This document shows, one piece after another, positions 11,920 to 29,998 of a DNA stretch of 32,000 bases (position 1 is the stretch's first letter; each line of letters starts with the position of its first letter). The DNA lies in the NCBI GenBank assembly GCA_000166095.1, contig CP002278.1, forward strand, positions 300,001-332,000, given 5' to 3'. The notes under the pieces were generated by a model. It ran no database searches. It had not been told where the DNA came from and saw only the letters and a list, made by a program, of their open reading frames with translations. This DNA is from Methanothermus fervidus DSM 2088 (GTDB taxonomy: Archaea; Methanobacteriota; Methanobacteria; DSM-2088; Methanothermaceae). Both the position numbers and the translations under genes were made by a program.

Positions 11920-14900
11920 CTATTGCTCAGGCCTTCTCAATAGATATCCTACCGCCATCAATGCAATCAATATTATAACTCCGATTATTCCTGCAAATGG
12001 CACTGATGATGGACTTCCAATTCCTTTAGACACTGGTGTAATCTCATATGCTTTACCTGCTGCAGCACCTGTAATTCCTGCTTTACCTGTAGCACCTGAT
12101 TCTGATGAGGATTTACTTGCAGCTCCAGAAGCTTGAGCTGCTCCTCTTGCACCAACTTCACCACCAACTCTACCTGAAGGACCTGAAATTCCTGGTGAAA
12201 CTCCCCTTGTTGCTGCAGTTCCAATTCCTACTCTTCCTAATGCAGTTGGAGCTCCTAGTTGTGATGGTGCTCCTGGAATTGAAGGTTGTGGTGTAGTTGT
12301 TGGAATTCCAGGGACTGAAGGTTGTGGTGTTGTTGGAGCTCCTGGGATTGAAGGAGCAAATGCAGCATTTTTTGTTGCTATATATAGCTGAGATCTTACT
12401 GAATTTAATAGATTTGGATTTACATAGTTTAATGCCCATCTTATCATAGCTATATTTCCACAACTGCAATCACAGCATGCTGGTCCATATCTGGCTATTA
12501 GAGCTGCCCATCTATTTGCAATTAATCTAAGAGTTTCTGTAGATGGATGCCAGAAGCCTTTGTGGGCTGCTGTAAGTAATGTACCTATGATGCTTATCAT
12601 TGCATATGCTCTATTTCCAGTTGATAGCCATTGTGATACTCCAATGTTGTATTTGTCTTTCACATATACATCTACAATTTCATTCCACATCCAATCTTGG
12701 ACTAGGTGAGGCGTTGTTACTTGAGATAACCAAAGGTTTGAGACAAATTTACGGCTGAAGTATCTGCCAGTTGGATCTGTTTTCATCATTCCTGTTATCC
12801 ATGAAGGATTAAAGTAACGTGTTGCCATCTCTTTAACCATAAATTGTTGTAAATCAAATACCTTTGGGTTATTTCTGTTTGCATAACTTAAAACCATTAT
12901 TGTTGGTGGAGATTTATTTATTCTTTCTATTGCCATTGAAAGTCCGCCCCAATAATCAAAGAAATCATCATTGTCAAGAACTCCATAAAGGTTTGTGTTT
13001 CTACTTGTATATACTATTGACACTCCACTTAATGCTCTCTTAAATACTTCTGGATTGTTAACTCCCCATTTCGTGCTTGAGTAAATATTACTCATTCTAT
13101 TTATGTAAAAATCTGCGAGCTGTGTCCTATTACTCCATGTCCATGCCATTTCAACAGATTTTGATATACCAGCCCCATAATCATTTTCTGGTGGTGCAAA
13201 TATTCGAGATATTGCAAGTTCTCCAGCTTCTTCTGGAGTCATGTTAAGGGACAGGTAATATGCAAAATCTTTCACCCAGTGTTTTGCTATATAATTATCA
13301 TTTAATGATTCGGATCCTAATCCATAAAATCCTACAGGTGTCAATACATAATCTAGAGCTTTTTTTAGTTTTTCACCATATTTCTTTTTAAGTGTTTCAT
13401 TATTAAGTATTGTATAATATGCTGCTGCAAGAGCCAATCTAAATGCTTTATCTAATATTCCAACTTGTCTACTGTACAAATCTCTAAATAAACCGGTTGT
13501 AACTATAACTACGTCAATTCTTTTCTTTGGCCATCCTTCTGGCCTAACAAGATCTTTTAATTCTACAAGTCTTGGAATTTCTTTGACTTTAGCGCCTCCA
13601 ACACCAGCACTTGGAGAGCTTGACCATTCTGGCTTTGCTCCAATAAGATGAAGTACCATTGATATTAATGCTCCATCATCACGTGCAGTTTCTGTACAAA
13701 AAATTCCTACAGCTATCTTTTCGACTTTACTTGCTTCTTCAATAACTTTTCTTTTTTGATTGGGTTTAAGTTTTGTAAATTTCTTTTTATAGAGTTTTTC
13801 TGAAATTTTTTCTGCTAAACCTTCAAGTGTTTGCATTGCTAATATTTTACCATATTCAACAGCTTTTTTAGTTGGTATTTCTTCCGCCTGATTTTGGAAA
13901 AAGTTTCTTCCCGTTGGTAACACGTCTGGATTAACTACTGGATCATTTCCAGGCCCTGGTGGTATAAAACCACAATTTAACGCATTTAACAGTGCTTTTA
14001 TTTCATTTTCAATGCTTTCTTTTATTAGGTTTACATATTTCAATGCTTCTTCAAGAACTTTTTTTAATCCCTCTGTTGGGTTTGAAGTTAAATTATTTAC
14101 TGTTGATTCAAGACCATTTCTAATTAAATTTCTAACTACTTCAATACATTTTTTGTTTATTTCTTCTTTTTGTGTAAATGTAAGGTTGTTGTATTTTTTT
14201 CCACAAATAAGCATTGATATTTCATCTTGTAAAGTTGTTTCAACCTTAGGTGAAATTTCGATAGGTATTGAAAGTATTGAAGTAACTAACATTGCAATCT
14301 CATCATCTGTCCAATTTTTACCAATGGCATGTAAACCATAAGGATAAAGTGTATTTTGTAGGGATGTTAAATAATCTTCAATTGCATCTACAAATTCATC
14401 ATCCTTTAATTCATCCAATCTTTTTCCAATGTAAGCCTCAATTATTTTTGTAAAGTTATTATTCTTGATGACTTCTTTCATTTTAGCTATAATTTGTGGT
14501 TTTACCGATGGATCTGCACCATCGTATTGGCTTACTAAAGATGCTAGTTCTCCATAACCCCCATATAATTCAGTGAATGACATTGGAGGAGTTAAATGAT
14601 CTATCATAACTGCTGATCCTCTTCTTTTAGCTTGAATACCTTCTGCAAGTCCATCCACAATATAGTAGTAAATTTGTGGCGTGCTTCCAACAACAACTTT
14701 TGGAAAGTCATATGGTGCAAGCAATACTTCTTTTCCTGGTAGCCATTCATAAGTAGCGTGTCTTCCAAGATGTACCATTGCATGAGTGTTTTCTTGGAGA
14801 TATAAATATGCTGCAAGATATTGGTGTGGTGGAGCTACAACCATACTATGGTATAATTTGTTGATATCTCCTTCCCATCCACGTTGAGGTTCTGGACAAA

Positions 14901-16947
14901 CAAAAATGTTACCAAACCATATTCCAGGAATAACAAAATATTTTGTGCCATTTTTTTCTATTGTCATTACATTTCCTGGTGGTTCACCCCATCCACAAAT
15001 TCCTGGAACTTTAAGAGAAAGAAATCGTTTTTTATAATCCATAAATTCTTGATAATAACTTTCGTTTTGGGTTAAAAGATATTCTTTTAAAATATTTACT
15101 ATCTTATCTAGTAAAGGTAACACATCTTTGGTTCTATTTTCTGGTAACAATGATACTAACCCTTGGTACCATGAATCTAATCTATCAAACATTTCTTGTG
15201 TATAATTCAATTCTACAGCTTTTCTACATAATTCTCCAATATATCCTACAGGACCTTCAATAACTTGAAGTTTTGTAATATTATCTAATTTTGAGAACCA
15301 TTCTATATATTTATCAACTGGGTAAAGAATTGCACCATTTTCTACCAGCTTTTCAAGCTCTCCTGGTGCCCATGGCGCAATATTAATAGCTTTTTTCAAT
15401 ATCAAATCAAGCAATTCTGTTGTATTTGTAGGAATGTTTTCAACTTTATATCCATTTTCTTTAAGAATATGAAGTAGATTATAAATGCTTGTTATAGTGT
15501 TAAGATAACTTGACCCTATGTTGCTTTTACCTGGTGGATAATTGTAGTAGATTAAAGCAATTTTTTTCTCAGAGTTAGGCATTCTTTTTAAAAGTATCCA
15601 ATTTTTTATTGTGTCTGCTAAAAGCTCAATATTTTTGTCTATCACCTTGTAATCACTGAAAACTAAGCCTGTGATGGGATCTTTACTAGGAGGTGCAAGC
15701 GTTGCAACTATTGTTGGATTTATAATCCCTTGTGCCTCTGGAACTGCTATATGCCACCATTTGTCACCTGTAAGATACCTAATCCCTTGTGAACTAATTT
15801 CCCATTGTTCTGCACTTATATAATCAGAATGTATTGCTCTAAAAACAGGTACATTCAATATTTCAAAAAATTTAATTACGTCTGTAAAATTATCACCGCC
15901 TAAACCAAAGGCTGGCATGCTTATTATAGCATCAACATAAACCTTATACTTAGATGGGTTTGCAAAGAAACTTTCAACATTAGGAGCATCTGTAAATGAT
16001 TCTACCATAACTTTTAACTGATCTGGTGTAGCACCATATGCTACTACTGGTATGACATTTATATTCCGCTTTTCTAGTGCATCGATGAGTGCATAATAAG
16101 GTCCTAATTGTTGAGAACCTACATACATTGTACTTTCAATAATACCAACACATCCGATGGCACTTGTTTTAAAGTAATGTTGTGCATAAACTGTGAGATT
16201 ATCATACCATCCATAGCGGTATATACCATAAATTTTTTCACCAGAAGAAGTTTTAGCCCAGTCAGGTTCGTGCCATTCTACTGAAAATCCTAACCTATTC
16301 AATGCCCATAATATTTGTTCTTTGAGTGCCAAAACATTGTTTAAATCTTTATATAAAACAGCCCTATTGAAATCTTCAGGAGATTTTATAGATGAAAGGT
16401 AATTTTTAACATAATCGTATGATAAACCTCTTTTGGTGTTTTGATACAAGTTATATAATTCTTCGTCTGAAAAATTTTCTAAGAGATATTTTCCTTTGAT
16501 GTTTGAATATCTCATCAAATTAATATACCCTGGAGCAGGTTCAAGAATTAGAAATATTCCATCTTTTTTATTTGTTATTTGTTTATTTTTTGAAAATATT
16601 TCTTGTAAGCGCTTTGACACTGAGTCACTGATCCATTCTCCAATAAATATTTTAGAATTAGAAATCAAATTAACAAATTCATCGTCTTGGATTTTTTCGA
16701 TCTGAGAGCAACTCCTTACTTGAAATTGTACGTTGTTAGTTAGGGTAGTGTTATTTTTTATTAATTCATGTACAGCTTGGTTGGCTATTATAGCTCCTTG
16801 ATTATCACTTAAAATAACTACTGTAATTTTATCTCTACTTGAGTTATTAAAATCTGTTGTATTTAATGCATATACATGCGTAGAGTTAGCTGAAATAAAA
16901 ATTATAAAAGAGATAATAATTATTGACATGAATATAATATTTCGCAT
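11920..16947 (-). CDS. CobN/ChlH-family chelatase-like protein with signal peptide, Pro/Thr linker, Gly/Ala/Ser stalk and C-terminal membrane anchor (predicted cell-surface)
   Basis: 1675 aa. CobN hallmarks HATYEWLPGK, YPYGLHAIG, PPGPGNDPVVNPDVLPTGRNF, DNDDFFDYWGG. N-terminal MRNIIFMSIIIISFIIFISANSTHVYA. Many N-x-S/T sequons. C-terminus ...PFAGIIGVIILIALMAVGYLLRRPEQ. Confidence 0.85.
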   Translation of the reverse strand: MRNIIFMSIIIISFIIFISANSTHVYALNTTDFNNSSRDKITVVILSDNQGAIIANQAVHELIKNNTTLTNNVQFQVRSCSQIEKIQDDEFVNLISNSKIFIGEWISDSVSKRLQEIFSKNKQITNKKDGIFLILEPAPGYINLMRYSNIKGKYLLENFSDEELYNLYQNTKRGLSYDYVKNYLSSIKSPEDFNRAVLYKDLNNVLALKEQILWALNRLGFSVEWHEPDWAKTSSGEKIYGIYRYGWYDNLTVYAQHYFKTSAIGCVGIIESTMYVGSQQLGPYYALIDALEKRNINVIPVVAYGATPDQLKVMVESFTDAPNVESFFANPSKYKVYVDAIISMPAFGLGGDNFTDVIKFFEILNVPVFRAIHSDYISAEQWEISSQGIRYLTGDKWWHIAVPEAQGIINPTIVATLAPPSKDPITGLVFSDYKVIDKNIELLADTIKNWILLKRMPNSEKKIALIYYNYPPGKSNIGSSYLNTITSIYNLLHILKENGYKVENIPTNTTELLDLILKKAINIAPWAPGELEKLVENGAILYPVDKYIEWFSKLDNITKLQVIEGPVGYIGELCRKAVELNYTQEMFDRLDSWYQGLVSLLPENRTKDVLPLLDKIVNILKEYLLTQNESYYQEFMDYKKRFLSLKVPGICGWGEPPGNVMTIEKNGTKYFVIPGIWFGNIFVCPEPQRGWEGDINKLYHSMVVAPPHQYLAAYLYLQENTHAMVHLGRHATYEWLPGKEVLLAPYDFPKVVVGSTPQIYYYIVDGLAEGIQAKRRGSAVMIDHLTPPMSFTELYGGYGELASLVSQYDGADPSVKPQIIAKMKEVIKNNNFTKIIEAYIGKRLDELKDDEFVDAIEDYLTSLQNTLYPYGLHAIGKNWTDDEIAMLVTSILSIPIEISPKVETTLQDEISMLICGKKYNNLTFTQKEEINKKCIEVVRNLIRNGLESTVNNLTSNPTEGLKKVLEEALKYVNLIKESIENEIKALLNALNCGFIPPGPGNDPVVNPDVLPTGRNFFQNQAEEIPTKKAVEYGKILAMQTLEGLAEKISEKLYKKKFTKLKPNQKRKVIEEASKVEKIAVGIFCTETARDDGALISMVLHLIGAKPEWSSSPSAGVGGAKVKEIPRLVELKDLVRPEGWPKKRIDVVIVTTGLFRDLYSRQVGILDKAFRLALAAAYYTILNNETLKKKYGEKLKKALDYVLTPVGFYGLGSESLNDNYIAKHWVKDFAYYLSLNMTPEEAGELAISRIFAPPENDYGAGISKSVEMAWTWSNRTQLADFYINRMSNIYSSTKWGVNNPEVFKRALSGVSIVYTSRNTNLYGVLDNDDFFDYWGGLSMAIERINKSPPTIMVLSYANRNNPKVFDLQQFMVKEMATRYFNPSWITGMMKTDPTGRYFSRKFVSNLWLSQVTTPHLVQDWMWNEIVDVYVKDKYNIGVSQWLSTGNRAYAMISIIGTLLTAAHKGFWHPSTETLRLIANRWAALIARYGPACCDCSCGNIAMIRWALNYVNPNLLNSVRSQLYIATKNAAFAPSIPGAPTTPQPSVPGIPTTTPQPSIPGAPSQLGAPTALGRVGIGTAATRGVSPGISGPSGRVGGEVGARGAAQASGAASKSSSESGATGKAGITGAAAGKAYEITPVSKGIGSPSSVPFAGIIGVIILIALMAVGYLLRRPEQ
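12241..12357 (-). repeat. imperfect 33-36-nt tandem repeats encoding the PS(I/V)PG(A/I)PTT(T)PQ linker of the CobN-like protein
   Basis: Units 12266-12301 and 12302-12334, partial units 12248-12265 and 12335-12357. Locally GC-richer than the rest of the window. Confidence 0.7.
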
Positions 16948-17044: not shown

Positions 17045-18358
17045 TCACCAAACATCAGCATATCCTTCTTCTTTCCCTGTATATCTAGCTATATACCTAA
17101 ATTCTCCCCTTGGAGCTATGTATTTACTTATCTCCCTCATCTGTGGATTCAATCCCTCAATTTCATATTTTATTCTTAGATTTAATGGAATTCTATATCT
17201 TGATGGATTTTTGACAATCATTGTTCCAGATACTGCATATTTAAATGGATATTTACCTAACTCTATTGTTTTTGTTTCATTTGGCTTTAGAGTTATTGTT
17301 AATTCTCTATAGCTGACTTTAGTTCCATTAACTGGATTTGTGTAGATTGAGATGTAATATTTTATGGTTATTGTTGATTTTCCTAAGTTTGTTAGGGTTA
17401 TTGTGAAGGTTTTGTTTCCAGAATATTTTGCTGATAATCCTGCAAGTATTATCTTATAAAATTTTCCTGTTCTATTATATGTTAATATGTTTTCACCAGT
17501 CTTATTGAAGTAGTTAGTTACGTCCCAGACATTGTATCCTGCATAATCAGCTGTAGTTTGGCCCCCAGGAAGTATAACATCATTGAATGTATACATTCCA
17601 TCTTGACTTGCAGCATGCACAACTGTAAGTGTAGCATTCTCTATTTTTTCTCTAATATTTGCTATAAATTTTGTTTTGCCTATGTAATTATTATCTTTAT
17701 AACTTACAACGTCATGTCCTAGATTGATCCAATATTCAGTAATGTTCGTGCTGTTTGGAATGTCATATGCAACAACAAGTGTTATTAATTTTATTCTGCC
17801 ATCACGAGATCCAGTGGTGTTTATTAGTGCAGTATTATATCCTGCTGTTGTAAGACTAGTTACATCATACCACATTAGATAATCACTTGTTACTCTCATT
17901 GTATGGTTGTTGACCATTAAGTAAGGATCATTGTCATGACCAGGGCCAAGAATTGCTGTATTATTGTTTCCAGCGGGTGGATAAGTGTAAGTTGTATTGA
18001 GGAATTGACTATCTAGCAATTTTCCATTGTAAGTTACATTAACATATGTTTCCTTAGCTTCTTGCATGTGTCCAGAATATACTAGAACATAAAGTGTTGC
18101 ATTTTTTACAATAGCATTTTCAGGCAATGGTTTAAATTTATAGTAAACATAGGCATTTCCTATACTTTGATTTGCACTTTCTGCATTCCCTGTGAACCCT
18201 AAATAACTGTCTATATAAAGCCCACCAGTCACCTTTCCATGTTTAACAGTTTCTAGTGGTTTGCCACCATAATAAGAGTCAGCATATGTCAACCCTGGTA
18301 ACATAAACAATGCAACCACTATGAGACCCAATATATAAATTTTCTTAATATTTTTCAC
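17045..18358 (-). CDS. secreted beta-rich protein (DUF3344-like body + C-terminal Ig/CARDB-like domain), probably glycosylated
   Basis: 437 aa. Signal peptide [26 protein letters not shown]. Many N-x-S/T sequons. [13 protein letters not shown]-type motif and repeated NATLYV / NATLTV segments resemble DUF3344 as I remember it. The tail [17 protein letters not shown] looks CARDB-like. Confidence 0.55.
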
Positions 18359-19404: not shown

Positions 19405-20013
19405 ATGGCAACTAGGGAATTTATTGTAAGGATGAACGATACTACTACTAGTCCAAATTTTTCATTAAATAATCTTACAGGTGTTGGAAGGTTAGATTTA
19501 GCTTGTAGGGCTGTATCTTCAGCCCTATTTCTTTCTCATTCAATAAGAAAAAACTCTAAAATTTATGTCAACTTAAATGGTCCTCCTTCACCGCCAGTAA
19601 CAATATTATTTGATGCAAAAAATCTAAAAAGAGTATATCCTGATGAGAGGAACATTGCATCTCATATAAGAATTGCATTGAAAAAATTTGATAAAAAAGA
19701 AATTTTCACTGAAACAGAGCCTGGAATTTTCATTGCTAAAAAAAGTTTTGAAGAATTAATAAAAGAAAAAAATAAAAAAGCAGATATTTATTATTTATCA
19801 AAAGATGGCAAAGATATTAGAAAATTTAAATTTAATCTTGAAAAGGATCTTTGTTTTATTCTTGGAGACCATAAGGGAATTCCTAAAAAAACAGAAAAAT
19901 TTTTGGATGAATTAGGAATAAAAAAAATATCTGTTGGTGAAATAGAATACTTAGCATCACAAGTCATTACCATTGTGCATTATGAACTTGATAGACGTTT
20001 AGCAAGTAGGTAA
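19405..20013 (+). CDS. trmY: tRNA (pseudouridine54-N1)-methyltransferase
   Basis: 202 aa. REFIV...GRLDLACRAVSSALFLSHSIR...PPSPPVTILF...VYPDERNIASHI...ILGDHKGIP closely follows the TrmY (SPOUT, former DUF358) pattern. Confidence 0.85.
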   Translation: MATREFIVRMNDTTTSPNFSLNNLTGVGRLDLACRAVSSALFLSHSIRKNSKIYVNLNGPPSPPVTILFDAKNLKRVYPDERNIASHIRIALKKFDKKEIFTETEPGIFIAKKSFEELIKEKNKKADIYYLSKDGKDIRKFKFNLEKDLCFILGDHKGIPKKTEKFLDELGIKKISVGEIEYLASQVITIVHYELDRRLASR

Positions 20014-20597
20014 TCTTTATATGTATTTATATTTAACAGTTCAATTTCTTTTAGAGGAGGAATTGCATAAATTTTTACATTGTTATTGAGCATTTTTTTA
20101 AGAATTGGATTGATATTCCCAGGATATTGAGGTAAATATCTCAAAAGTAATTCCTTCCTAGCTACAAACGGCATGCCAAGTCCTTCCACATTTTCAACAT
20201 ATCCTTCTTTTCCTTTTCTACCTAATATCGACAATACGTCTTTTTTTATAGAAGTTTTTATTAAATTATTGAATGTTTCGCTGGTTACAAATGGTTGATC
20301 TCCTGCCACACACAAACAAATTTCATTGTTACATTCTTTGACACCAGATAATAGTGAATAAGACAATGGAACTTTATCAACCTTAACAATTTTTATATCA
20401 AGGTTTTTAATCAAATTAAAAATTTCTTTTTCTCTATATACAATGATACACTCATCAATTTTAGAGTTAAAAACATTGCTTAAAGTATGAAGCAATATTG
20501 GCTTGTTTCCAATTTTTAATAACAATTTATTTTTTGACACGTGTTTTTTCATTCGTTTACTTTGACCAGCTGCTGCAACTATTGCTGAAACTTTCAA
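19980..20597 (-). CDS. MobA/MocA-like nucleotidyltransferase (NTP_transf_3 type)
   Basis: 205 aa. N-terminal AAAGQSKRM...K.LL..G.P motif of MobA/MocA/IspD-like NTP transferases. 4 nt downstream of the VanW-like gene. Its 3' end overlaps the trmY 3' end by 34 nt. Confidence 0.6.
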   Translation of the reverse strand: MKVSAIVAAAGQSKRMKKHVSKNKLLLKIGNKPILLHTLSNVFNSKIDECIIVYREKEIFNLIKNLDIKIVKVDKVPLSYSLLSGVKECNNEICLCVAGDQPFVTSETFNNLIKTSIKKDVLSILGRKGKEGYVENVEGLGMPFVARKELLLRYLPQYPGNINPILKKMLNNNVKIYAIPPLKEIELLNINTYKDYLLAKRLSSS

Positions 20598-20601
20598 ATT
20601 A

Positions 20602-21783
20602 TCACTCCGGAATTAAATATATTATTTTAACATGTATTTCCATGCTAGGACCATGGCCTTCTGACCACATTATTATCTTTATTGGATATTTACCTGTATT
20701 TGTTATCTTAATATCTGTTGCAGGGTTTATACCATACTTAACTGCCGTATATTCCCAAGTCAATCCTGTAGGCAATGGAAATCCAATACTAGTTACGGCA
20801 TCTCTTAAAGCTCTTGCTGGTGGACAAGTACCATGAGAAGCTGTGCCTGTCGGTGCCTTTGGATCACTAGAAAGTTCAAAACCAACAGATTCTTTACCAG
20901 AGGATGCTGTACCTGGTGGTATTATTGTGTTATTCCATGCTTTAATAAAAGATCTTGCATTTAACTCTCTTTTTAAATCATTATATTCAGGATAAGATCC
21001 CAAATAATCAACTACGTGTATTGCAACTTTTTCCTTGTAATTATGCATGTAAACCATTATAGGAGAATAGCTTGGATAATTTTTCATGTATTCTTTCACA
21101 TTTTTACCAAAAAGTTTTTCAATCTCATTTGGAGGAACTTCGCGCCTATTATCATTAAAATAATTCAATGAATAATCTAAAGTTATATTTTCACCTTCAT
21201 ATGCATTCATATACCATTTTTTAATTTCTTGGACAGAAACATAATCATGAGGTACTGTATCATTATTTATATCTGAAAAACTAACAACTTTAACAATTCT
21301 ATTTTTTTCGACTATTGCTAAGGAATTTTTCGTCTTTACGCCATATGTATATGGAACTTTATAACCCCAAACAAAATTAGATGGAGAATCTACACAAATT
21401 TTACCATTTTTAATTTTTAATATACCAGGTCCTTCATAACCTACAGCTATTCCTCTTCTAGATATATGTTCTCCCAATACTTTCTCCATATTTGGTGTTA
21501 CTCCTGTTAAAATGGAAATCATGACTTCATCATATTGTCGTTCTTTAAAATCTTCTATTAAGTTTGTGGGATGAAGAATTAATGGTGCTTTCCATACTTT
21601 ATCTCTATTCACAACTTTCATTCCTGGAAGTATTGTATCTCCTGCATCAAAAGACGAAACTTCTTTTGGATTTTGGGAGGGACTACCTTTTTCTGCATAC
21701 AACCCAATAGGGGCTGTGATTATTGCTAATGCAAAAAATAAAATAATAAATTTATTTAATTTTTTCAATGATTTCACGCCCAT
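20602..21783 (-). CDS. exported protein with C-terminal VanW-like domain carrying a conserved-looking Cys (candidate cell-wall peptide transpeptidase)
   Basis: 393 aa. Signal peptide KFIILFFALAIITAPIGLYA. The C-terminal ~115 aa are NARSFIKAWNNTIIPPG...GTASHGTC(320)PPARALRDAV...GINPATDIKITNTGKYPIKIIMW...MEIHVKIIY. This parallels the VanW layout N..A..I.G.vl.PG...GGGxCQxSxTLYNA...G.DATv..DlKFkN...pilI. The ATG overlaps the upstream ligase gene by 32 nt. Confidence 0.5.
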   Translation of the reverse strand: MGVKSLKKLNKFIILFFALAIITAPIGLYAEKGSPSQNPKEVSSFDAGDTILPGMKVVNRDKVWKAPLILHPTNLIEDFKERQYDEVMISILTGVTPNMEKVLGEHISRRGIAVGYEGPGILKIKNGKICVDSPSNFVWGYKVPYTYGVKTKNSLAIVEKNRIVKVVSFSDINNDTVPHDYVSVQEIKKWYMNAYEGENITLDYSLNYFNDNRREVPPNEIEKLFGKNVKEYMKNYPSYSPIMVYMHNYKEKVAIHVVDYLGSYPEYNDLKRELNARSFIKAWNNTIIPPGTASSGKESVGFELSSDPKAPTGTASHGTCPPARALRDAVTSIGFPLPTGLTWEYTAVKYGINPATDIKITNTGKYPIKIIMWSEGHGPSMEIHVKIIYLIPE

Positions 21784-23230
21784 ATTTTACTCCTCCCTCT
21801 CCAATAATAAGTATGGTATCATTTTTATCTGCATAACTAAGGGCTTTCTTTATAGCTTCTTCTACTTGAAATTTACTTGCACCTAAAGTTCCTTTTTTAA
21901 ATTTTTTTTCTGTTGATTTTACATTTATTACGGTAGTATTTGTGTATTTTGATGCTTTTCTAGCAGAATATGATGCCGGTATCAATATATCTGCACTACT
22001 TAGAATTTTTGCAATTTTAATGTCTTCTTTGATTCCACTTTCAGATGATATTGTATTGACAACTATTAACCTGCCTTTTGGCTTTATTGTTTGAAGTATT
22101 GCCTTTACACCTGCAACATTGTGTGCATAATCAATTATTATCTCTGGTTTTTTATATATTTTTTCCATTCTTCCAGGAACTTTTTTAAATGTATTTAAAC
22201 CTTCAATTATTTTATCAAAATCAATTTTAAGAATAAATGCAGCTGCAGCAGCTGCTAAGGCATTGTATACATTAAATATACCACCATATTCTAATTTTAC
22301 AAGGCCTTCATTTGAATCAATGGATAAAATAAATTTTTTATTCTCCACATCTATAGCTTTAACTGTTGGTCTTGGTCTTTTAAACCCACATTCACACTCA
22401 TATTTTCCAAGATGTCCTAGAAATATTTCTTCGTATTTTAAATTTTTACCACAGAAAGGACAATCTCTATCCTCAAAAAAATGTTTTATTTTAATTTTTA
22501 AATTTTCAATCCCATAGTAGACTGTGTTGTCATTGCCAAAACTTGCGACTATTGGATCATCAGCATTTAAAACTAGTTTTTTTGCAACTTCCGTAATTTC
22601 TTTTTTACATTCAACATATTCTTGGAAAGAAATATTCTTTAAATGATCTCTTGATATATTTGTAATGACGCCAACAGTTACGTTGCTATTTTTTGCAGAT
22701 CTTTTTATTTCATTTTTTACTCCAAAGGTTCCTATTTCAACAACAGCAACGTCTCCAGGCAATCTTGCCTGTAATGGAGGTATAAACTCTGTATTACCTT
22801 GAATATTTAAATGATGTTCTGGCACCTCAAGCCCAGATATTTTAAGTATGTTTTTTAACATCTCCCTTGTTGTAGTTTTTCCATTTGTACCTGTAATACC
22901 AACTACTGGTTTTTTAACTTTATATTTTAAAATATCTTCTATTTTAATTAATTCTGCTTTTGGATTTTTATTTATTAAATTTAATACTTTTTTATTATTT
23001 GTTAAACTTGGTGCAATTGCTATAGCATCTGCTTTTTTTATTAAAGATAAATCGTGCCCACCTAAATCTAATTTTATACCTTCAGATTTAAATATATCTT
23101 TTAAATATGTATCTTTTCTAATATCTGACACTGTAACATCGTTACCTTTAGATTTTAAAATTCTTGCCATCAAACTACCTACTGTACCACAACCACCAAT
23201 TACAACTATCTTTTTATTTTTTAATTGCAT
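21752..23230 (-). CDS. Mur-ligase family protein (pseudomurein peptide ligase paralog) with MurT-like Cys4 zinc ribbon
   Basis: 492 aa. N-terminal Rossmann VVIGGCGTVG. P-loop GITGTNGKTTT, then VITNISRDHL, NALAAAAAA...VPGRME and DYAHN. Insertion C257PFC260GKNLKYEEIFLGHLGKYEC279EC281GFKRP (nt 22388-22462). Confidence 0.8.
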   Translation of the reverse strand: MQLKNKKIVVIGGCGTVGSLMARILKSKGNDVTVSDIRKDTYLKDIFKSEGIKLDLGGHDLSLIKKADAIAIAPSLTNNKKVLNLINKNPKAELIKIEDILKYKVKKPVVGITGTNGKTTTREMLKNILKISGLEVPEHHLNIQGNTEFIPPLQARLPGDVAVVEIGTFGVKNEIKRSAKNSNVTVGVITNISRDHLKNISFQEYVECKKEITEVAKKLVLNADDPIVASFGNDNTVYYGIENLKIKIKHFFEDRDCPFCGKNLKYEEIFLGHLGKYECECGFKRPRPTVKAIDVENKKFILSIDSNEGLVKLEYGGIFNVYNALAAAAAAFILKIDFDKIIEGLNTFKKVPGRMEKIYKKPEIIIDYAHNVAGVKAILQTIKPKGRLIVVNTISSESGIKEDIKIAKILSSADILIPASYSARKASKYTNTTVINVKSTEKKFKKGTLGASKFQVEEAIKKALSYADKNDTILIIGEGGVKYGREIIEKIK

Positions 23231-24746
23231 CTAATATGTCTCCTTTTACATTATCATAAGCATTGACAACGCCTGGACCTATATGTAGAATCAAATCTCC
23301 TTTTTTTGATAATTCGATAGCCTTTAGTATTGAATCACGTACATTAGATGTTATTATTGTTTTGCATTCTTTTGCTCCTCTAGCAACTTCTTCAGCAGCA
23401 TTCCAGTCTATTTCTCCAGTAGTTTCATTTTTAGCACTGCATATAAGTATATCAGCTTTTTTTGACAGAATTCTACCAATTCTAAATTTATCTCTAGTTG
23501 TGAGAGTATCTGGATTATCAAGACTTATAATAAGTCTACCTTTCACATCTAAGTTTCCAATGACTTTTTCCATACTTTCTGGATTGTGTGCAGCGTCCAT
23601 ATATATTTTAACACCATCAATTTCTCCTATTTTTTCAAATCTGCCTTTTATACCTTTGAAATTTTCTAATTTTTCTTTTATATATTTCATTTTAAGTCCT
23701 AAAGCCAAACCAACAGTAATAGTTGCAAGAGAATTTTCAATATTTACTATCCCTGGAATTTGCAACTTTATGTTTTTTTCAAAAGGTCCAACATATCTTC
23801 TTTTAAATTCTCCACATTTGCATAATAATTCACCACAATTTTCGCAAATGACTGTTGGTATCTCATTAACCACAGCTTTAAATTTGGATCCGTCTAATCC
23901 TTCCAAAACAATATCTTTTGCTGTTACATCAGGTTTAGGCTTCTTTCCATCAAAACTATAAACTTTTGATTTATATTTAATTTTTTGTGGCTTGCCTAAC
24001 CCATAAAATACAATTTCTTTGTTAACAGAATTTTTTAACTTATATATAATTGGATCGTCACTATTGAAGACCAAAAGACCATTTTTATGCACTAAATCCT
24101 TTACTAAAAAATTTCTTTTCACATAATCCCAATATCCATCAAATTCATCCAAATGGTCAGGTGTTAAATTTGTTAAAACACCTACAGATAACTCCAAACC
24201 TTTAACCATTCTTATAGTTCCATGAGGTAATTCAAAAACAGCAAATTCTTTATCTTTGTAATCCTGATTTACGACAATCTCTGCAAGACCTTCTATTACT
24301 AAAGAATCTTGAAGAGAAGAAAAGACAAGTGTTGAATATTTATCTTTTAACAGATAATATATCATGTTTGTGGTCGTTGTCTTTCCATCAGTGCCTGCAA
24401 CGCCAACCATAGGCATGTTGATAAATTTCCCTAAAATTTTGCCAATTTCCTCGGGAGTTATTATTTCTAGTCCTGATTTCTTAACAATTTTAACAATTTC
24501 AGAGTTTGTGGGTATACTTGGTGAAATAAATACTTTTTCAGCCCAATCCAAACTTTTAGGATTATGATGCCCAAATTCAAATTTTATGCCCATTTTTTTC
24601 ATTTTTTTTATTTTTTTCTTTGCCTTAGGTGGTAATTCCTCAAATTTTTTAATTTCACTGACCAATACTTCGTTACCTAAATAGTGTAAAAGCAATGCTG
24701 CAGGCCTACCAGCATTTCCTGCCCCAATAACAAGAATTTTTGACAT
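23214..24746 (-). CDS. Mur-ligase family protein (pseudomurein peptide ligase paralog) with Cys4 insertion
   Basis: 510 aa. VIGAGNAGRPAA, GVAGTDGKTTTT, VLTNLTPDHL, GIKGRFE, DAAHNP. Insertion C301ENC304GELLC309KC311GEFKR (nt 23814-23846). Overlaps the next ligase gene by 17 nt. Confidence 0.8.
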   Translation of the reverse strand: MSKILVIGAGNAGRPAALLLHYLGNEVLVSEIKKFEELPPKAKKKIKKMKKMGIKFEFGHHNPKSLDWAEKVFISPSIPTNSEIVKIVKKSGLEIITPEEIGKILGKFINMPMVGVAGTDGKTTTTNMIYYLLKDKYSTLVFSSLQDSLVIEGLAEIVVNQDYKDKEFAVFELPHGTIRMVKGLELSVGVLTNLTPDHLDEFDGYWDYVKRNFLVKDLVHKNGLLVFNSDDPIIYKLKNSVNKEIVFYGLGKPQKIKYKSKVYSFDGKKPKPDVTAKDIVLEGLDGSKFKAVVNEIPTVICENCGELLCKCGEFKRRYVGPFEKNIKLQIPGIVNIENSLATITVGLALGLKMKYIKEKLENFKGIKGRFEKIGEIDGVKIYMDAAHNPESMEKVIGNLDVKGRLIISLDNPDTLTTRDKFRIGRILSKKADILICSAKNETTGEIDWNAAEEVARGAKECKTIITSNVRDSILKAIELSKKGDLILHIGPGVVNAYDNVKGDILDAIKK

Positions 24747-24758
24747 TTCTTACCTCCG

Positions 24759-25994
24759 CTATTTTATGTTGAATATTGACATTGATTCTTCTAGAATTCT
24801 TTCTTCATAATCCTTTTTCTTTTCTCCAGGTTTCATTGGTTGCCTTAAAATTCTCAATAATTCCTTAGAAACACGAACTCCTATTTTATTTTTAAGCAAG
24901 GGATTTTTAATGTCGATGTTTTTTATCTTTTCTGAAAATATTTTTTCCTCTATTTTGTTAGCATCAGATGTTCTTACCTTTACCTTTGCCTGCTCTTTGC
25001 TCTTAAGATTATGGTAGTTAATCGCGACATAAATTGCACCATTGTTTAGAACATGTCTTTTGATTCCTTGAAAATCAATAGAGGAGACTTTACCATTCAA
25101 TTCTCCATAAACTTTAATTAATACAATTTTATTTTCAACATTTTTCTCATTTAATTTATTAATTATTTCAGTTCTAGCTTCTAAAGGAGACATATTATCA
25201 AAATTATTTAGCTTTATATATTCATACTCTGCTACATCTACATTTTTAAATTCATATTTTTTTACTTCATCATCAAATTCCACAATATAAAATCCTCTAT
25301 CTAAACCAGAAGCTGTTTTTTCTAAATCTTTAAATGAAGGTCCAAAAAGAGTTCCGGGATAAAATATCATCTCTTCTTCATCTATTATTTTCTCATGTAG
25401 ATGGCCACCAGCATAATAGTTAAAATTTCTTGGCAATGAACTCTTGGCAATGCCTTCAATCTCAGGTAAATCTTTTGGTATAAGTTCTTTTATTGCAGTG
25501 TGAAACATGAAAATTTTAAATCCTTTTTCTTTTTCTAAATATTCCATGTCTAAAAGCCTAAAATATTCCTTTTCTATAGATCTTTGCCTTGCGTTTATAC
25601 CACATATCTTAGCTCCAGTATTATCCTCTATAAATTCTAATTTTATTTTACCACAAGCTTTAGCATGGAAAACCTTTGTTATTAAGCCTGCACTCTCTAA
25701 AATATCAATCATTGAGGTATTAGTGGGACTGTAATCATGACTTCCATAAATAACATATATTGGGATCTCTTTGTCTCTAACATCTTTTAGTTTTTTTGTA
25801 GTTCTTTTTGCAGCTTCCATATTGGGTATGTTGGAATGAAACAAGTCACCACATATTATAATAAAATCAACTTTTGATTTTAAGGCCTCATCAATAGCAT
25901 TTTCAAAAGCTTTGATCTCCATTTCTTTCAATGTTGGATGTCTATGAGATCCAATATGAGCATCTGCAATATGTGCAAACTTATATGTAATAAT
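24759..25994 (-). CDS. mre11: DNA double-strand break repair nuclease Mre11 (5' boundary uncertain; no canonical start upstream of motif I)
   Basis: Phosphoesterase motifs: I FAHIADAHIG, II ICGDLFHS, III YGSHDY, IV FMFHTA, V AGGHLHEK. The track start (25931) is TTG and would delete motif I. In-frame codons upstream run TGA(26007-26009) GAA GGG GAT GGT ATT ATT ACA TAT AAG TTT GCA CAT..., so the candidate start is ATT at 25994 or 25991. Confidence 0.8.
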   Translation of the reverse strand: MITYKFAHIADAHIGSHRHPTLKEMEIKAFENAIDEALKSKVDFIIICGDLFHSNIPNMEAAKRTTKKLKDVRDKEIPIYVIYGSHDYSPTNTSMIDILESAGLITKVFHAKACGKIKLEFIEDNTGAKICGINARQRSIEKEYFRLLDMEYLEKEKGFKIFMFHTAIKELIPKDLPEIEGIAKSSLPRNFNYYAGGHLHEKIIDEEEMIFYPGTLFGPSFKDLEKTASGLDRGFYIVEFDDEVKKYEFKNVDVAEYEYIKLNNFDNMSPLEARTEIINKLNEKNVENKIVLIKVYGELNGKVSSIDFQGIKRHVLNNGAIYVAINYHNLKSKEQAKVKVRTSDANKIEEKIFSEKIKNIDIKNPLLKNKIGVRVSKELLRILRQPMKPGEKKKDYEERILEESMSIFNIK

Positions 25995-26088: not shown

Positions 26089-28686
26089 ATGAAATTAAAA
26101 TCTTTAGAATTGAAAAACATTAGGAGCTATAAATATGAAAAATTAGAATTTAATGACGGAGTTACACTTTTTGAAGGAGATATTGGTAGTGGAAAATCAA
26201 CAATATTGTTAGCTATAGAATTTGCACTTTTTGGTTTAGGTAATTACACAGGTTCTGGATTATTACGTATTGAAAATGGTGTACATGTAAGAGAAGGTCA
26301 CGTTAAATTGGAATTTGAAAGCAATGGCAAACCATATATTGTATATCGAAGTTTAAAAAATGAAAATGGTAGAATAGGCCAAGATAAATGTTGGATTGTG
26401 GAAGATGGAAAAAAACAATTACTATCACCTACCGAATTAAAGAAGAAAATTTTAAAAATTTTAAATTTTAATGAACCTGTAAATCCAAGATCCAAAAGTG
26501 TAATATATAGATATGCTGTTTTTACACCACAAGAAGAAATGAAATCAATTTTAACAAAATCAGATGATGAACGTTTGAATACTATAAGGAAAGCTCTAAG
26601 ATTGGATGAATATAAAAATGCTAGAGATAACTGTAAGTTGTTAAAGAATTTATTGAATACACGCTACATTGAATATAAGTCAAAGGTAGAGGGGCTAGAT
26701 GAGCTTAAGAATAAATATAAGAAAAAAATGGAGGAGCTAAGCACAATAACATCCAAAATTAAAGAGTTGGAGAAAGATAGGGAAAAACTTAAGAATGAAG
26801 TTAAGGAGCTAGAGAAAAGGAAGGAGAAAATTGAGGAGAAGTATAGGGAGATTTTAAATCTGGAGGAGAAGATTCCAGAGATTGAGGAAAGAATGAGGGA
26901 AGAAAAAGAAAGATTGGAAAAAGTGAAAAAAGAGAAAAACAAGATTAAGAATTCCCTGGAAAAATTAAAAAGAGAGTTTGAAGCCAGTAAAGAAGAATTA
27001 AGCACAATAACATCCAAAATTAAAGAGTTGGAGAAAGATAGGGAAAAACTTAAGAATGAAGTTAAGGAGCTAGAGAAAAGGAAGGAGAAAATTGAGGAGA
27101 AGTATAGGGAGATCAAGTATAGGGAAAAAGAAATCCCAGAAATCAAGAAACAAATAACAGAGGAAAAAGAAAGAAAAGAATCGTTGATAAAAGAAAATAA
27201 AAATTTATCAGGAAAGCTGAAGGAGCAAAAACAAGAATATCAAAAGAAAAATGAAGAATTAAAAATAATTGAAGAAGAAATATCTGATCTAAGGGCAAGA
27301 ATACATGGAAAAATAATGGAAAAAAATTTAGAAGACATAGAAAAAGATCTAGAAAAGTTTGAAGAAGAACTAAACAAAAAAATTGGAAGGATAGAAAATA
27401 ATATCAAAAATATAAAATCTCTCAAGGAAAAGGGTGTATGTCCTACTTGTGAAAGGCCCATAGAAGAATATGAGGTAGATAATAAAGTAGAAAAATATTT
27501 AGAAGAGAAAAATAGAGTAAAAAATAAAATTGAGAAAGTTAGAGAAAAAATTGAAATGATTAGGAAATTAAAAGATAAAAATAGAAAATATAATGAAATA
27601 AAAAACGAATTAACGAGATTAAAAGAATACATAAACGAAAATGAGAAAAAATATGCAGAAAATGAAAAAGAAATTAAAAAAATTGATGTAAATATACATA
27701 AATTAAAAGAAAAACTGAAAAAAGAAAAAAAGAAGATTGCAGAAAAAGAGAAAGTAAAAGAAAAATTTGAAAAAATAAACAAAAAATACGAAAAGATAAG
27801 TAAAGATCTTGAAAATGTTAGTAATAAACTATCCAAATATGAGGAGCGTAAGGATAATCTCAAGGCTAATATCAGTAGAATAAAGAGCGATGAAAAAGAA
27901 AAAGAAAGTGATTTAAAAGAACGTAAAATCGAAATTGAAAATATTAAAAATAAAATTAACCAATTAAAACTAAGAAAAAGAAAAATAGAAAAGAAAATTA
28001 AAGAAAAACCAAAAGTAGAAGAAAAAGTTAAAAGAATCGAAAAAGAATTTGAAGAAAAAGAAGACATGCTTAAAAAAGTAGAGAAAGAATTGTCTTCATG
28101 TAAAAGCAGTGAAAGACATCTGAAAGAAAATATACGTGAAATTAAGGAGGAAATTAAGAAAAAAGAGGAATTCAAAGAATTAAGTGAAAAATATAAAGAA
28201 TACAAAGAATGGATTGAAGATTACTTCATGCCATCTATTGAAGAAATTGAAGAACATATACTTATGAACATATATGAAAACTTTAATGAGAAATTTAAAG
28301 AATGGTTTAACAAGCTCATTGATGATCCTGAGAAATCTGTAAGAATTAATGAGAAATTTAAACCTGTTGTAGAGCAAGATGGATACGAACAAGACATTGA
28401 ATATTTAAGTGGTGGAGAGAGGACAAGCGTTGCATTAGCATATCGTTTAGCTCTCAATAAGGTGGTTAGAGATTTCTCAGAAAGTGGTGACATCGATGTT
28501 TTGATTTTAGATGAACCTACAGATGGATTTAGTAGAGAACAGATAAACAAATTAAGAGATGTTTTAGATGATTTAGAATGTTCTCAGATTATACTGGTCT
28601 CACATGAAAGAGAACTTGAGGCATTAGCTGACTATGTGTACAGAGTAGAAAAATCTGCAGGCATTTCAGAGATCAAAGAAGGTTGA
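26089..28686 (+). CDS. rad50: DNA double-strand break repair ATPase Rad50
   Basis: 865 aa. Walker A GDIGSGKST, Q-loop FTPQEE. Long K/E coiled coil with CPTC zinc hook at about aa 450-453 (nt 27438-27449). Signature LSGGERTS, Walker B VLILDEPT, H-loop VSHE. Confidence 0.9.
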   Translation: MKLKSLELKNIRSYKYEKLEFNDGVTLFEGDIGSGKSTILLAIEFALFGLGNYTGSGLLRIENGVHVREGHVKLEFESNGKPYIVYRSLKNENGRIGQDKCWIVEDGKKQLLSPTELKKKILKILNFNEPVNPRSKSVIYRYAVFTPQEEMKSILTKSDDERLNTIRKALRLDEYKNARDNCKLLKNLLNTRYIEYKSKVEGLDELKNKYKKKMEELSTITSKIKELEKDREKLKNEVKELEKRKEKIEEKYREILNLEEKIPEIEERMREEKERLEKVKKEKNKIKNSLEKLKREFEASKEELSTITSKIKELEKDREKLKNEVKELEKRKEKIEEKYREIKYREKEIPEIKKQITEEKERKESLIKENKNLSGKLKEQKQEYQKKNEELKIIEEEISDLRARIHGKIMEKNLEDIEKDLEKFEEELNKKIGRIENNIKNIKSLKEKGVCPTCERPIEEYEVDNKVEKYLEEKNRVKNKIEKVREKIEMIRKLKDKNRKYNEIKNELTRLKEYINENEKKYAENEKEIKKIDVNIHKLKEKLKKEKKKIAEKEKVKEKFEKINKKYEKISKDLENVSNKLSKYEERKDNLKANISRIKSDEKEKESDLKERKIEIENIKNKINQLKLRKRKIEKKIKEKPKVEEKVKRIEKEFEEKEDMLKKVEKELSSCKSSERHLKENIREIKEEIKKKEEFKELSEKYKEYKEWIEDYFMPSIEEIEEHILMNIYENFNEKFKEWFNKLIDDPEKSVRINEKFKPVVEQDGYEQDIEYLSGGERTSVALAYRLALNKVVRDFSESGDIDVLILDEPTDGFSREQINKLRDVLDDLECSQIILVSHERELEALADYVYRVEKSAGISEIKEG
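26738..26852 (+). repeat. copy 1 of a perfect 115-nt intragenic direct repeat in the rad50 coiled coil
   Basis: Compared base by base with 26999-27113: identical. Offset 261 nt = 87 codons. Encodes LSTITSKIKELEKDREKLKNEVKELEKRKEKIEEKYREI. Confidence 0.95.
26999..27113 (+). repeat. copy 2 of the perfect 115-nt intragenic direct repeat in rad50
   Basis: Identical to 26738-26852. Confidence 0.95.
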
Positions 28687-29910: not shown

Positions 29911-29958
29911 TTGGGGGTTCATCATAAAATTCAGCACGTCCCTAGCTTCATCATCTTT
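29900..29958 (-). ncRNA. C/D box sRNA (2'-O-methylation guide), hand-detected
   Basis: The minus strand reads aaag-AUGAUGA(C, 29954-29948)-agcuagggacgug(13 nt)-CUGA(D', 29934-29931)-auuuu-AUGAUGA(C', 29925-29919)-acccccaacua(11 nt)-CUGA(D, 29907-29904)-uauu. Box order, spacer lengths and ~55-nt size fit archaeal C/D sRNAs. TATA-like TTTTAATAATAAAATA lies ~15-30 nt upstream. The 3' part overlaps the stop region of the opposite-strand ligase gene. Confidence 0.7.
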
Positions 29959-29998
29959 AATTATAATTTCTATTTTATTATTAAAATCTAATTTTGAG

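Follow-up and report, generated by a model that had tools for sequence, protein, structure and literature searches.

Remote VanW homology of PmurA (Mfer_0335) from Methanothermus fervidus marks it as a candidate pseudomurein cross-linking enzyme

We analyzed Mfer_0335, the gene encoding PmurA, in a stretch of 32,000 nucleotides (nt) from Methanothermus fervidus DSM 2088 (contig CP002278.1, positions 300,001 to 332,000; hereafter the window, whose numbering is used throughout), and describe here the relationship of its C-terminal domain to the bacterial VanW domain and its possible role in cross-linking pseudomurein. In the open reading frame (ORF) list of the window, the gene starts with ATG on the minus strand, and its 393-residue translation is 100% identical to the M. 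fervidus protein ADP77138.1. The same-strand gene order is a pMurD1-type ligase, pMurC, PmurA and PmurB, in agreement with the initial annotation, made from the letters alone, which had placed the gene within a Mur-ligase operon. PmurA contains exactly two Cys residues, C130 and C320, and the C320 codon (20824-20826) lies within TASHGTCPPARALRDAV. The protein length, the Cys count, the position of C320 and the 32-nt overlap with the upstream ligase gene had all been given correctly before. A purine-rich run, GGAGAGGGAGGAG, stops 6 nt 5' of the PmurA ATG, and translational coupling with pMurC is probable.

PmurA is matched by NCBIfam NF053640 ("Mfer335 family protein PmurA"), of which Mfer_0335 is the founding member, with 514.7 bits against a cutoff of 400 (E 1.3e-154), with residues 17-392 aligned to positions 2-378 of the 378-position profile. 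"Gene Cluster 1" was drawn up around Mfer334 and Mfer335 by Subedi et al. (2021), who state that Mfer335-like sequences occur in every pseudomurein methanogen and nowhere else (PMC10117817). Our searches gave the same distribution. A scan of 185,579 GTDB species genomes yielded 191 PmurA loci, and the 80 of them that were listed are Methanobacteriales-type; an exhaustive HMMER search of 1.84 billion representatives with the family profile gave only 68 matches, among them many short fragments, and no match exceeded the family's own proteins in length. The family is thus confined to pseudomurein methanogens, namely the Methanobacteriales-type loci and a Methanopyrus-like orthologue, which is how the distribution check proposed in the initial annotation turned out. 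Among 83 related loci examined for gene order, PmurB follows PmurA in 75, and a Mur-ligase match lies upstream of PmurA in 46. One locus (L018, protein P0025) comes from a metagenome-assembled genome (MAG) labelled 'Methanomicrobiales archaeon', with a ligase-PmurA-PmurB context and a GC content of 32%; this probably reflects a wrong label or faulty binning of a Methanobacteriales genome, and not pseudomurein genes beyond the expected orders.

Residue conservation was assessed over 113 homologues (37-52% identity). The results showed that C320 is invariant and C130 is not conserved; H317, P321, R324, N362, D211, R213, R272, N275, W283, T286, P289, P338 and G340 are also invariant. The motif HGxCPxxR around C320 is present in 80/80 listed genome loci and in all 11 full-length 50%-cluster representatives that cover the region, including the Methanopyrus-like one. 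The conservation of C320, another check named in the initial annotation, therefore held in the homologues, the listed loci and the Methanopyrus-like orthologue alike. Because the median Cys count per family protein is one and C320 is invariant, C320 is usually the sole Cys of these proteins. The most divergent orthologue (28% identity), from Methanopyrus-like contigs and MAGs with 62% GC (loci L098-L100), keeps HGCCPPARALR. It has neither a Mur ligase nor PmurB as neighbour, and is followed by a MoaA-like radical S-adenosylmethionine (SAM) gene (4-nt overlap) and then by alanyl-tRNA synthetase.

The N-terminus of PmurA, MGVKSLKKLNK, is followed by a 19-residue hydrophobic stretch (Kyte-Doolittle 2.1-2.4), and 97% of the full-length homologues have one such N-terminal segment and no other. 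The segment is preceded by a net charge of about +2 and followed by one of -1, and residues 3-33 form a single long helix in the AlphaFold2 (AF2) model. The stretch terminates in a conserved P-x-G-x-Y, with no AxA-type cleavage site. Owing to this end, the missing site and the helix, an uncleaved signal anchor, N-in and C-out, is more probable from sequence and model than a cleaved signal peptide. The "clear signal peptide" of the initial annotation thus stands as a hydrophobic segment, and its cleavage is doubtful. Subedi et al. likewise predicted a membrane insertion domain near the Mfer335 N-terminus (PMC10117817). With an anchor or a signal peptide alike, the remainder of PmurA is predicted from hydropathy to face outward. 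The middle domain (residues ~35-261) carries the invariant D211 and R213 (F-x-D-x-R) and a conserved N174-D-T, and is modelled with a predicted local distance difference test (pLDDT) score >90. It had no Pfam, PDB or BFVD match, and hhalign found no resemblance between the N-terminal/middle region and the PG_binding_4 part of VanW proteins (Prob 0.2). LolA was set aside as insignificant for this domain (NCBIfam LolA2, E 0.045; Pfam LolA in 4/113 members). Two near-invariant N-x-T sequons lie in the ectodomain, N174-D-T176 (21256-21264) and N284-N-T286 (20926-20934), with N174 conserved in 98%, T176 in >=90%, N284 in 95% and T286 in 100%; the second falls within the NGxxIxPG motif of VanW type. 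The sequons may serve N-glycosylation, in keeping with a position outside the cell, or may just be motifs of functional importance.

The VanW domain is the catalytic domain of the Cys-dependent L,D-transpeptidases (LDTs) Ldt4 and Ldt5 of Clostridioides difficile (PMC11348318), as the initial annotation had stated in general terms. When Mfer_0335 was searched against Pfam with hmmscan, no family matched at E <= 1. In a Pfam scan of the 113 relatives, VanW (PF04294) was the sole recurrent weak match (18/113, best E 0.0012), other families being matched by no more than 4 members each, and three relatives matched PF04294 positions 2-129 of 130 (E 0.0012-0.0019). We then compared family alignments with hhalign. 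The VanW reference set comprised 17 annotated VanW proteins of six phyla, located on annotated plasmids with a consensus probe in tblastn; Bacillota, Actinomycetota, Deinococcota, Pseudomonadota and Rubrobacteria are represented, as is the Enterococcus VanW-B protein. Further homologue searching to diversify the alignment was unproductive, nearly all the proteins retrieved belonging to the Bacillus cereus group. With full-length alignments, the Mfer335 family and the 17 VanW proteins gave one match (Prob 70%, E 4e-5, 115 columns), covering residues 253-378 of Mfer_0335 and the whole VanW domain. Restricted to the domain, the comparison gave Prob 90.6% and E 1.3e-6, while the controls stayed low (reversed VanW profile, 0.1%; 30 column-shuffled profiles, <=5.3%). 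The Actinobacterial VanW-family plasmid proteins L087 (Nocardia), L088 (Streptomyces) and L089 (Rhodococcus) carry Ser where the catalytic Cys would stand (GGGISQ, GGGVSA) and keep the invariant His and Asn; their sequences suggest either a Ser-nucleophile subgroup or an inactive one.

The conserved columns of the two families coincide at N275/N255, P290/P270, G318/G307, C320/C309, L326/L315, P338/P340, G340/G342 and N362/N358 (Mfer_0335/Bacillus VanW reference). N275 and P290 each pair with a 94%-conserved VanW residue (an Asn, and the PGExFSF Pro), G318 with the last of the three invariant Gly in the VanW GGG, P338 and G340 with the P.G turn, and N362 with the invariant Asn of DLKFKN. By-eye alignment had matched the C320 region to the VanW GGGxCQ core, DIKITN to DLKFKN and PIKII to the following strand; hhalign made the same three pairings, and the by-eye alignment is better than chance. 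It reassigned one element: the VanW G.DATV is paired with P338-x-G340...TAV, not with the G.(D/P)AT segment proposed earlier. It also aligned WNNTIIPPG with the VanW LNGxxIxPGExFSF motif, a match absent from the initial annotation. The AF2 models (Mfer_0335, pLDDT 93.1 and predicted template modelling score 0.85; Bacillus VanW protein, pLDDT 83.3) share one order of elements, namely strand, helix, strand, long loop, a helix starting at the Cys, and three strands. C320 is the first residue of helix 320-332, and the VanW model has one extra strand, which leads to the catalytic His. When the pLDDT-93 model was searched with Foldseek against the PDB and BFVD, nothing was found at E <= 0.001, a null that is uninformative on VanW because the PDB holds no VanW chain; the top rows (START/PYL proteins and an RNA polymerase beta' insert) were rejected at TM < 0.25. 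A search of PDB sequences with the HMMER family profile gave only a chance match (YajQ, E 1.2). These results show that, at the profile level, the C-terminal ~130 residues of PmurA are distantly homologous to the bacterial VanW domain. The VanW nucleophile is retained, as is probably the fold, and the family lies outside strict Pfam VanW membership.

We next compared the surroundings of the nucleophile. Bollinger et al. (2024) demonstrated L,D-transpeptidase activity for VanW domains, with a Cys as essential residue, and proposed a Cys-His-Asp triad (PMC11348318). C320 occupies the VanW catalytic Cys column, the first two Gly of GGG are replaced by S316 and H317, and the Gln of GGGxCQ is replaced by Pro. 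The VanW DATV Asp has no conserved counterpart in the Mfer335 family; the triad Asp is unnumbered in the main text of PMC11348318. In the archaeal family there are instead an invariant His at -3, where GGG has its middle Gly, and an invariant Pro at +1; the Cys helix carries Arg at +4 and +7, and the middle domain an invariant F-x-D-x-R. This is not a canonical site of the VanW kind. The lone invariant Cys stands at a helix N-terminus, inside an invariant motif kept down to 28% overall identity, a setting typical of a nucleophile rather than of a structural residue. Other Cys-enzyme arrangements were considered. YkuD (PF03734) had no match in Mfer_0335 or the 113 relatives at E <= 10. A papain/transglutaminase-like Cys...His...Asp order, prompted by the G-x-C...G-[FI]-P pattern, was rejected, as the 113 homologues have no conserved His or Asp downstream of C320, and a protein tyrosine phosphatase-like C-x5-R loop was rejected since the conserved Arg residues stand at +4 and +7.

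The operon position, the restriction to pseudomurein methanogens, the remote VanW homology and the invariant, usually unique Cys at the nucleophile position lead us to a functional proposal, of which the outside location, the thioester mechanism and the substrate are inferred. We tentatively favor, at slightly below an even chance, the view that PmurA works outside the cytoplasm as a thiol acyl-transferase on pseudomurein stem peptides, and most probably as the cross-linking transpeptidase. A more specific version, which we hold a little more hesitantly, would have PmurA cross-link pseudomurein with a VanW fold and a rewired His(-3)/Cys/Arg(+4) site by L,L-transpeptidation, with a Lys-Ala donor, release of Ala and a Glu amino acceptor. 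PmurA would then be bitopic, a short Lys-rich cytoplasmic N-terminus and one transmembrane anchor holding a two-domain ectodomain outside, beside the pseudomurein layer. In a lipid-linked or nascent stem peptide, C320 would attack the bond that precedes the terminal residue, releasing that residue (Ala) and forming a thioester acyl-enzyme. Transfer of the acyl group to an amino group of a neighboring stem peptide would give the Lys-Glu cross-link, and transfer to water would be a side reaction. The rewired site may comprise H317, R324, R327 and possibly D211 and R213 of the middle domain, supplying a general base and Arg residues that bind the carboxylate-rich L-peptide. A two-step Cys-dependent transpeptidation of this kind is performed by VanW domains (PMC11348318). 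Being co-transcribed, and probably translationally coupled, with pMurD1, pMurC and PmurB would link the production of PmurA to that of the stem peptide, an arrangement that resembles the placement of ftsI beside murE and murF in bacterial dcw clusters.

Several observations weigh against this proposal. Tested against PF04294 with hmmscan, as the initial annotation had suggested, Mfer_0335 itself remained unmatched at E <= 1, and the best family member scored 18.8 bits (E 0.0012) against a gathering threshold of 27, which no member reaches. The full-length hhalign probability was only 70%, and the HMMER profile search of 1.84 billion representatives gave no sequences bridging to VanW. In the hhalign alignment, a 13-residue deletion of the Mfer335 family takes in the invariant VanW His (H332 of the Bacillus reference, which follows the Cys by ~23 residues), and D357 is the partner of the VanW Asp with the highest conservation (D353, 88%), in a column that is Gly in 66% of the family. 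With the His deleted and the Asp not conserved, the catalytic machinery is therefore not transferable from VanW, and roles for H317 and R324 are conjectural. In the Methanopyrus-like genomes, the PmurA gene is not adjacent to Mur ligases. Lupo et al. (2025), whose orthologous group OG0001147 corresponds to this family, listed as an uncharacterized hypothetical protein, tabulated it as having no signal peptide and 0 transmembrane segments (PMC11915815, Table 1), an entry that conflicts with the N-terminal hydrophobic segment in 97% of members and with Subedi et al. Recombinant M. ruminantium PMurA broke down ATP to ADP and AMP (PMC12996149), and the published cross-linking candidates are exported transglutaminases (PMC10117817, PMC11915815, PMC2812497).

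The loss of the VanW His and Asp also bears on two other explanations. PmurA could be a non-catalytic wall-assembly factor whose ectodomain binds pseudomurein or a lipid-linked precursor and scaffolds or regulates synthases, with a structural or ligand-binding Cys. The missing catalytic residues and the large middle domain, which has no known catalytic signature, would suit such a role, as would the finding that 4/7 tested VanW proteins from outside C. difficile had no LDT activity (PMC11348318). The lone invariant Cys at a helix N-terminus, within an H-G-x-C-P-x-x-R kept to 28% identity, is typical of a nucleophile and makes this explanation quite improbable. Alternatively, the loss could mark a changed reaction, the same fold and thiol chemistry serving hydrolysis, through carboxypeptidase trimming of the terminal Ala or endopeptidase opening of cross-links for wall growth, while another enzyme, for example an exported transglutaminase, cross-links. 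The C. difficile VanW LDTs are also carboxypeptidases, and their Cys-to-Ala mutants retain some of that activity (PMC11348318). Transglutaminases are, moreover, the published candidates for the cross-linking step. As acyl donor, these enzymes use the side-chain amide of Gln, whereas pseudomurein cross-linking frees a terminal residue (PMC2812497). A core, single, universally conserved gene inside a precursor-synthesis operon suits biosynthesis better than remodelling (context; PMC10117817), and we regard a purely hydrolytic PmurA as rather unlikely.

The homology and the conserved Cys would serve equally well for a thiol acyl-transferase with another acceptor, one that links a surface protein or secondary polymer to pseudomurein or helps to join the peptide to the talosaminuronic-acid carboxyl. 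Such a role would resemble that of YkuD enzymes attaching Lpp and of sortases attaching proteins. An S-layer is known from only some pseudomurein methanogens, which would be ill-suited to the universal presence of PmurA. LDT-family enzymes attach proteins to peptidoglycan (e.g. PMC12274547), and no enzyme has been assigned to the joining of peptide to glycan either (PMC2812497). The joining of peptide to glycan is, however, described as intracellular (PMC2812497), in contrast to the predicted outside location of the domain. We consider this alternative unlikely. Sequence analysis cannot separate transpeptidase, hydrolase and other-acceptor roles, which share the same chemistry.

The published hypothesis is that PmurA is a cytoplasmic kinase or nucleoside triphosphatase (NTPase) that phosphorylates glutamate to start UDP-Glu synthesis upstream of PmurB. 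A phosphoryl-transfer role for Mfer335 was raised by Subedi et al. as a speculation, Mfer335 being listed as one possible enzyme (PMC10117817), and PMurA was later assumed to phosphorylate glutamate (Front Microbiol 2026; PMC12996149). The gene adjoins PmurB, which acts on Glu-phosphate/UDP-Glu (PMC12996149), and the ATP breakdown by the recombinant M. ruminantium protein also speaks for a kinase. Against it, Glu-phosphate was not detected with PMurA, and PMurB itself yielded Pi-Glu (PMC12996149). The same study states that PMurA holds a conserved NTPase domain (section 3.1), which is at odds with the absence of Pfam or NCBIfam nucleotide-binding matches in Mfer_0335, none recurring among its relatives; the Pfam cell for PMurA in its Table S1 is empty. 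Walker A is absent from Mfer_0335, and regex matches to it occur in only 8/120 relatives. The N-terminal anchor with its preceding positive charge predicts an outside location, and the only detectable homology is to an extracytoplasmic transpeptidase domain. A kinase therefore fits poorly, with no nucleotide-binding signature, a predicted outside location, no Glu-phosphate and Pi-Glu attributed to PMurB, and we judge it highly improbable. The initial annotation was made unaware of the existing name, Mfer335/PmurA, and of this differing guess.

For the cross-linking step itself, Leahy et al. (2010) reasoned that removal of a terminal residue and a Glu-Lys linkage are required, and found no genes like those of penicillin-binding proteins (PBPs) (PMC2812497). 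No homologues of PBPs, YkuD or other transpeptidases have been found in pseudomurein archaea, and transglutaminases are a guess (PMC2812497, PMC10117817, PMC11915815), put forward as exported cross-linking candidates by Lupo et al. (PMC11915815). In agreement with the initial annotation, the literature assigns no enzyme to the cross-linking step, transglutaminases being only proposed. Our literature search returned nothing that links pseudomurein or PmurA to VanW or names a pseudomurein transpeptidase, and as far as searched the VanW relationship and the candidacy of PmurA as cross-linker are unpublished. Overall, the sequence observation on Mfer_0335 is confirmed and its earlier interpretation is partly supported, with transpeptidase activity as the suggested function.

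Pseudomurein's cross-linking outside the cell has been an open question since the polymer was first described. The PmurA-VanW link, remote but statistically supported, makes it accessible to direct experiment with a single small protein and a single cysteine, and it argues against PmurA as a glutamate kinase, the idea behind an inconclusive attempt at enzymology (PMC12996149). If PmurA is the cross-linker, the shared ancestry of murein and pseudomurein would extend past the cytoplasmic Mur/MraY steps to the final, extracellular one, and the VanW fold could act with a different catalytic constellation and on all-L peptides. A single lineage-specific, surface-exposed Cys enzyme would also be a drug target against Methanobrevibacter in ruminants and the human gut.

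The features of the locus are collected in Table 1. For pMurC, the NCBIfam score was 518 bits, under its cutoff of 560, and a crystal structure has been reported (PMC10117817); enzymology of PmurB has also been reported (PMC12996149).

Table 1. PmurA, its domains and motifs, and the adjoining genes in the window
Feature	Positions	Strand	Basis
PmurA (Mfer_0335) coding sequence, 393 amino acids plus stop	20602..21783	-	ORF list; identity to ADP77138.1; NF053640, E 1.3e-154
Shine-Dalgarno-like run GGAGAGGGAGGAG, inside the pMurC 3' end	21790..21802	-	Upstream sequence; presumed ribosome-binding role
Overlap of pMurC 3' and PmurA 5' ends, 32 nt	21752..21783	-	ORF coordinates
Residues 1-30, Lys-rich N-terminus and single hydrophobic segment (signal anchor or signal peptide)	21694..21783	-	Hydropathy; AF2 helix 3-33
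Residues ~35-261, family-specific beta-rich ectodomain	21001..21681	-	Conservation; AF2 pLDDT >90
Residues 262-393, divergent VanW-like domain	20605..21000	-	hhalign; sub-threshold Pfam VanW in relatives; AF2 secondary-structure order
N284-N-T-I-I-P-P-G291, aligned with VanW LNGxxIxPGE	20911..20934	-	hhalign column mapping; W283, T286 and P289 invariant
H317-G-T-C320-P-P-A-R324 (HGxCPxxR), proposed active site	20812..20835	-	H317, C320, P321 and R324 invariant in 113 sequences
D357-I-K-I-T-N362 strand, aligned with VanW DLKFKN	20698..20715	-	N362 invariant, paired with invariant VanW N358
pMurC (Mfer336), pseudomurein peptide ligase directly upstream	21752..23230	-	Pfam Mur_ligase_M and Mur_ligase_C; best NCBIfam pMurC, E 1.8e-155
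pMurD1-type Mur ligase, overlapping pMurC by 17 nt	23214..24746	-	Best NCBIfam pMurD1, E 1.9e-113, under its cutoff
PmurB (Mfer334), MobA-like nucleotidyltransferase, starting 4 nt past the PmurA stop	19980..20597	-	ORF list; Pfam/NCBIfam

Other genes of the window surround this cluster. A third Mur ligase (28690-29910, +; 406 residues, Mur_ligase_M and MurD-like N domains), probably pMurD2/Mfer340, starts 4 nt past the Rad50 gene and overlaps the downstream radical-SAM gene (29894-31093, +) by 17 nt. Between this ligase and pMurD1/pMurC/PmurA/PmurB, in the middle of the pseudomurein ligase cluster, sits a divergent pair of genes for an Mre11-like phosphoesterase (24759-25931, -) and a Rad50-like structural maintenance of chromosomes (SMC) ATPase (26089-28686, +). 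A gap of 13 nt separates the end of the Mre11-like gene from pMurD1, which has the same orientation, so that the Mre11-like gene may be co-transcribed with the wall genes; an Mre11-like match also lies directly upstream of PmurA in 4/83 related loci. On the other side, a gene for a SPOUT-type putative RNA methyltransferase (19405-20013, +) converges on PmurB, and their 3' ends overlap by 34 nt, leaving no room for a terminator between the two. Farther along is encoded a DUF3344 protein (17045-18358, -) that begins with a hydrophobic leader and ends in an Ig-like region (weak Transglut_C match, E 0.004); its gene is upstream, on the same strand, of the gene for a 1675-residue CobN/Mg-chelatase-like protein (11920-16947, -).

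Among known systems, the transglutaminase-like proteins (the PeiW/PeiP endoisopeptidases and the exported transglutaminases) are, like the PmurA candidate, Cys enzymes that act or are proposed to act on pseudomurein peptides outside the cell. Unlike them, PmurA has no Pfam transglutaminase-core match and no conserved His or Asp after the Cys, and transglutaminase-like genes are not in the pMur clusters (PMC11915815). The YkuD L,D-transpeptidases and the sortases share the chemistry proposed for PmurA, with a thioester acyl-enzyme, release of a C-terminal residue and aminolysis by a second peptide. The conserved His, Cys and Arg of PmurA resemble the His-Cys-Arg of sortases and the His...Cys-x-Arg arrangement of YkuD. 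This resemblance is mechanistic only, since neither YkuD nor sortase has a Pfam match in Mfer_0335 or its relatives; the VanW and YkuD folds differ as well (PMC11348318).

The closest likeness is to the VanW L,D-transpeptidases (PF04294; Ldt4/Ldt5), with profile-level homology over the whole domain, a Cys in the same column and at the N-terminus of the equivalent helix, and shared flanking motifs (N..NxxxA, xNxxIxPG, the P.G turn and xxKxxN). Both have an N-terminal membrane anchor (compare the transmembrane helix of Ldt4/Ldt5) and an extracytoplasmic catalytic domain, predicted in PmurA, and both are tied to peptide-cross-linked glycan walls. PmurA differs in its sub-threshold Pfam scores, the deleted His, the Asp that is not conserved and the change of GGG-x-C-Q to S-H-G-x-C-P; it has a family-specific 230-residue domain in place of PG_binding_4 or G5, and an archaeal host. 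Its presumed substrate is an all-L, isopeptide-containing pseudomurein stem (L-Lys-L-Ala donor), in contrast to the meso-diaminopimelic acid-D-Ala tetrapeptide of VanW enzymes. In the literature, Mfer335/PmurA figures as an uncharacterized protein or a putative glutamate kinase/NTPase, unlike the VanW-based cross-linking role favored here. Mfer_0335 shares with the rest of the Mfer335/PmurA family (NF053640) its place in the operon, flanked by a pMur ligase and PmurB, and its confinement to pseudomurein methanogens.

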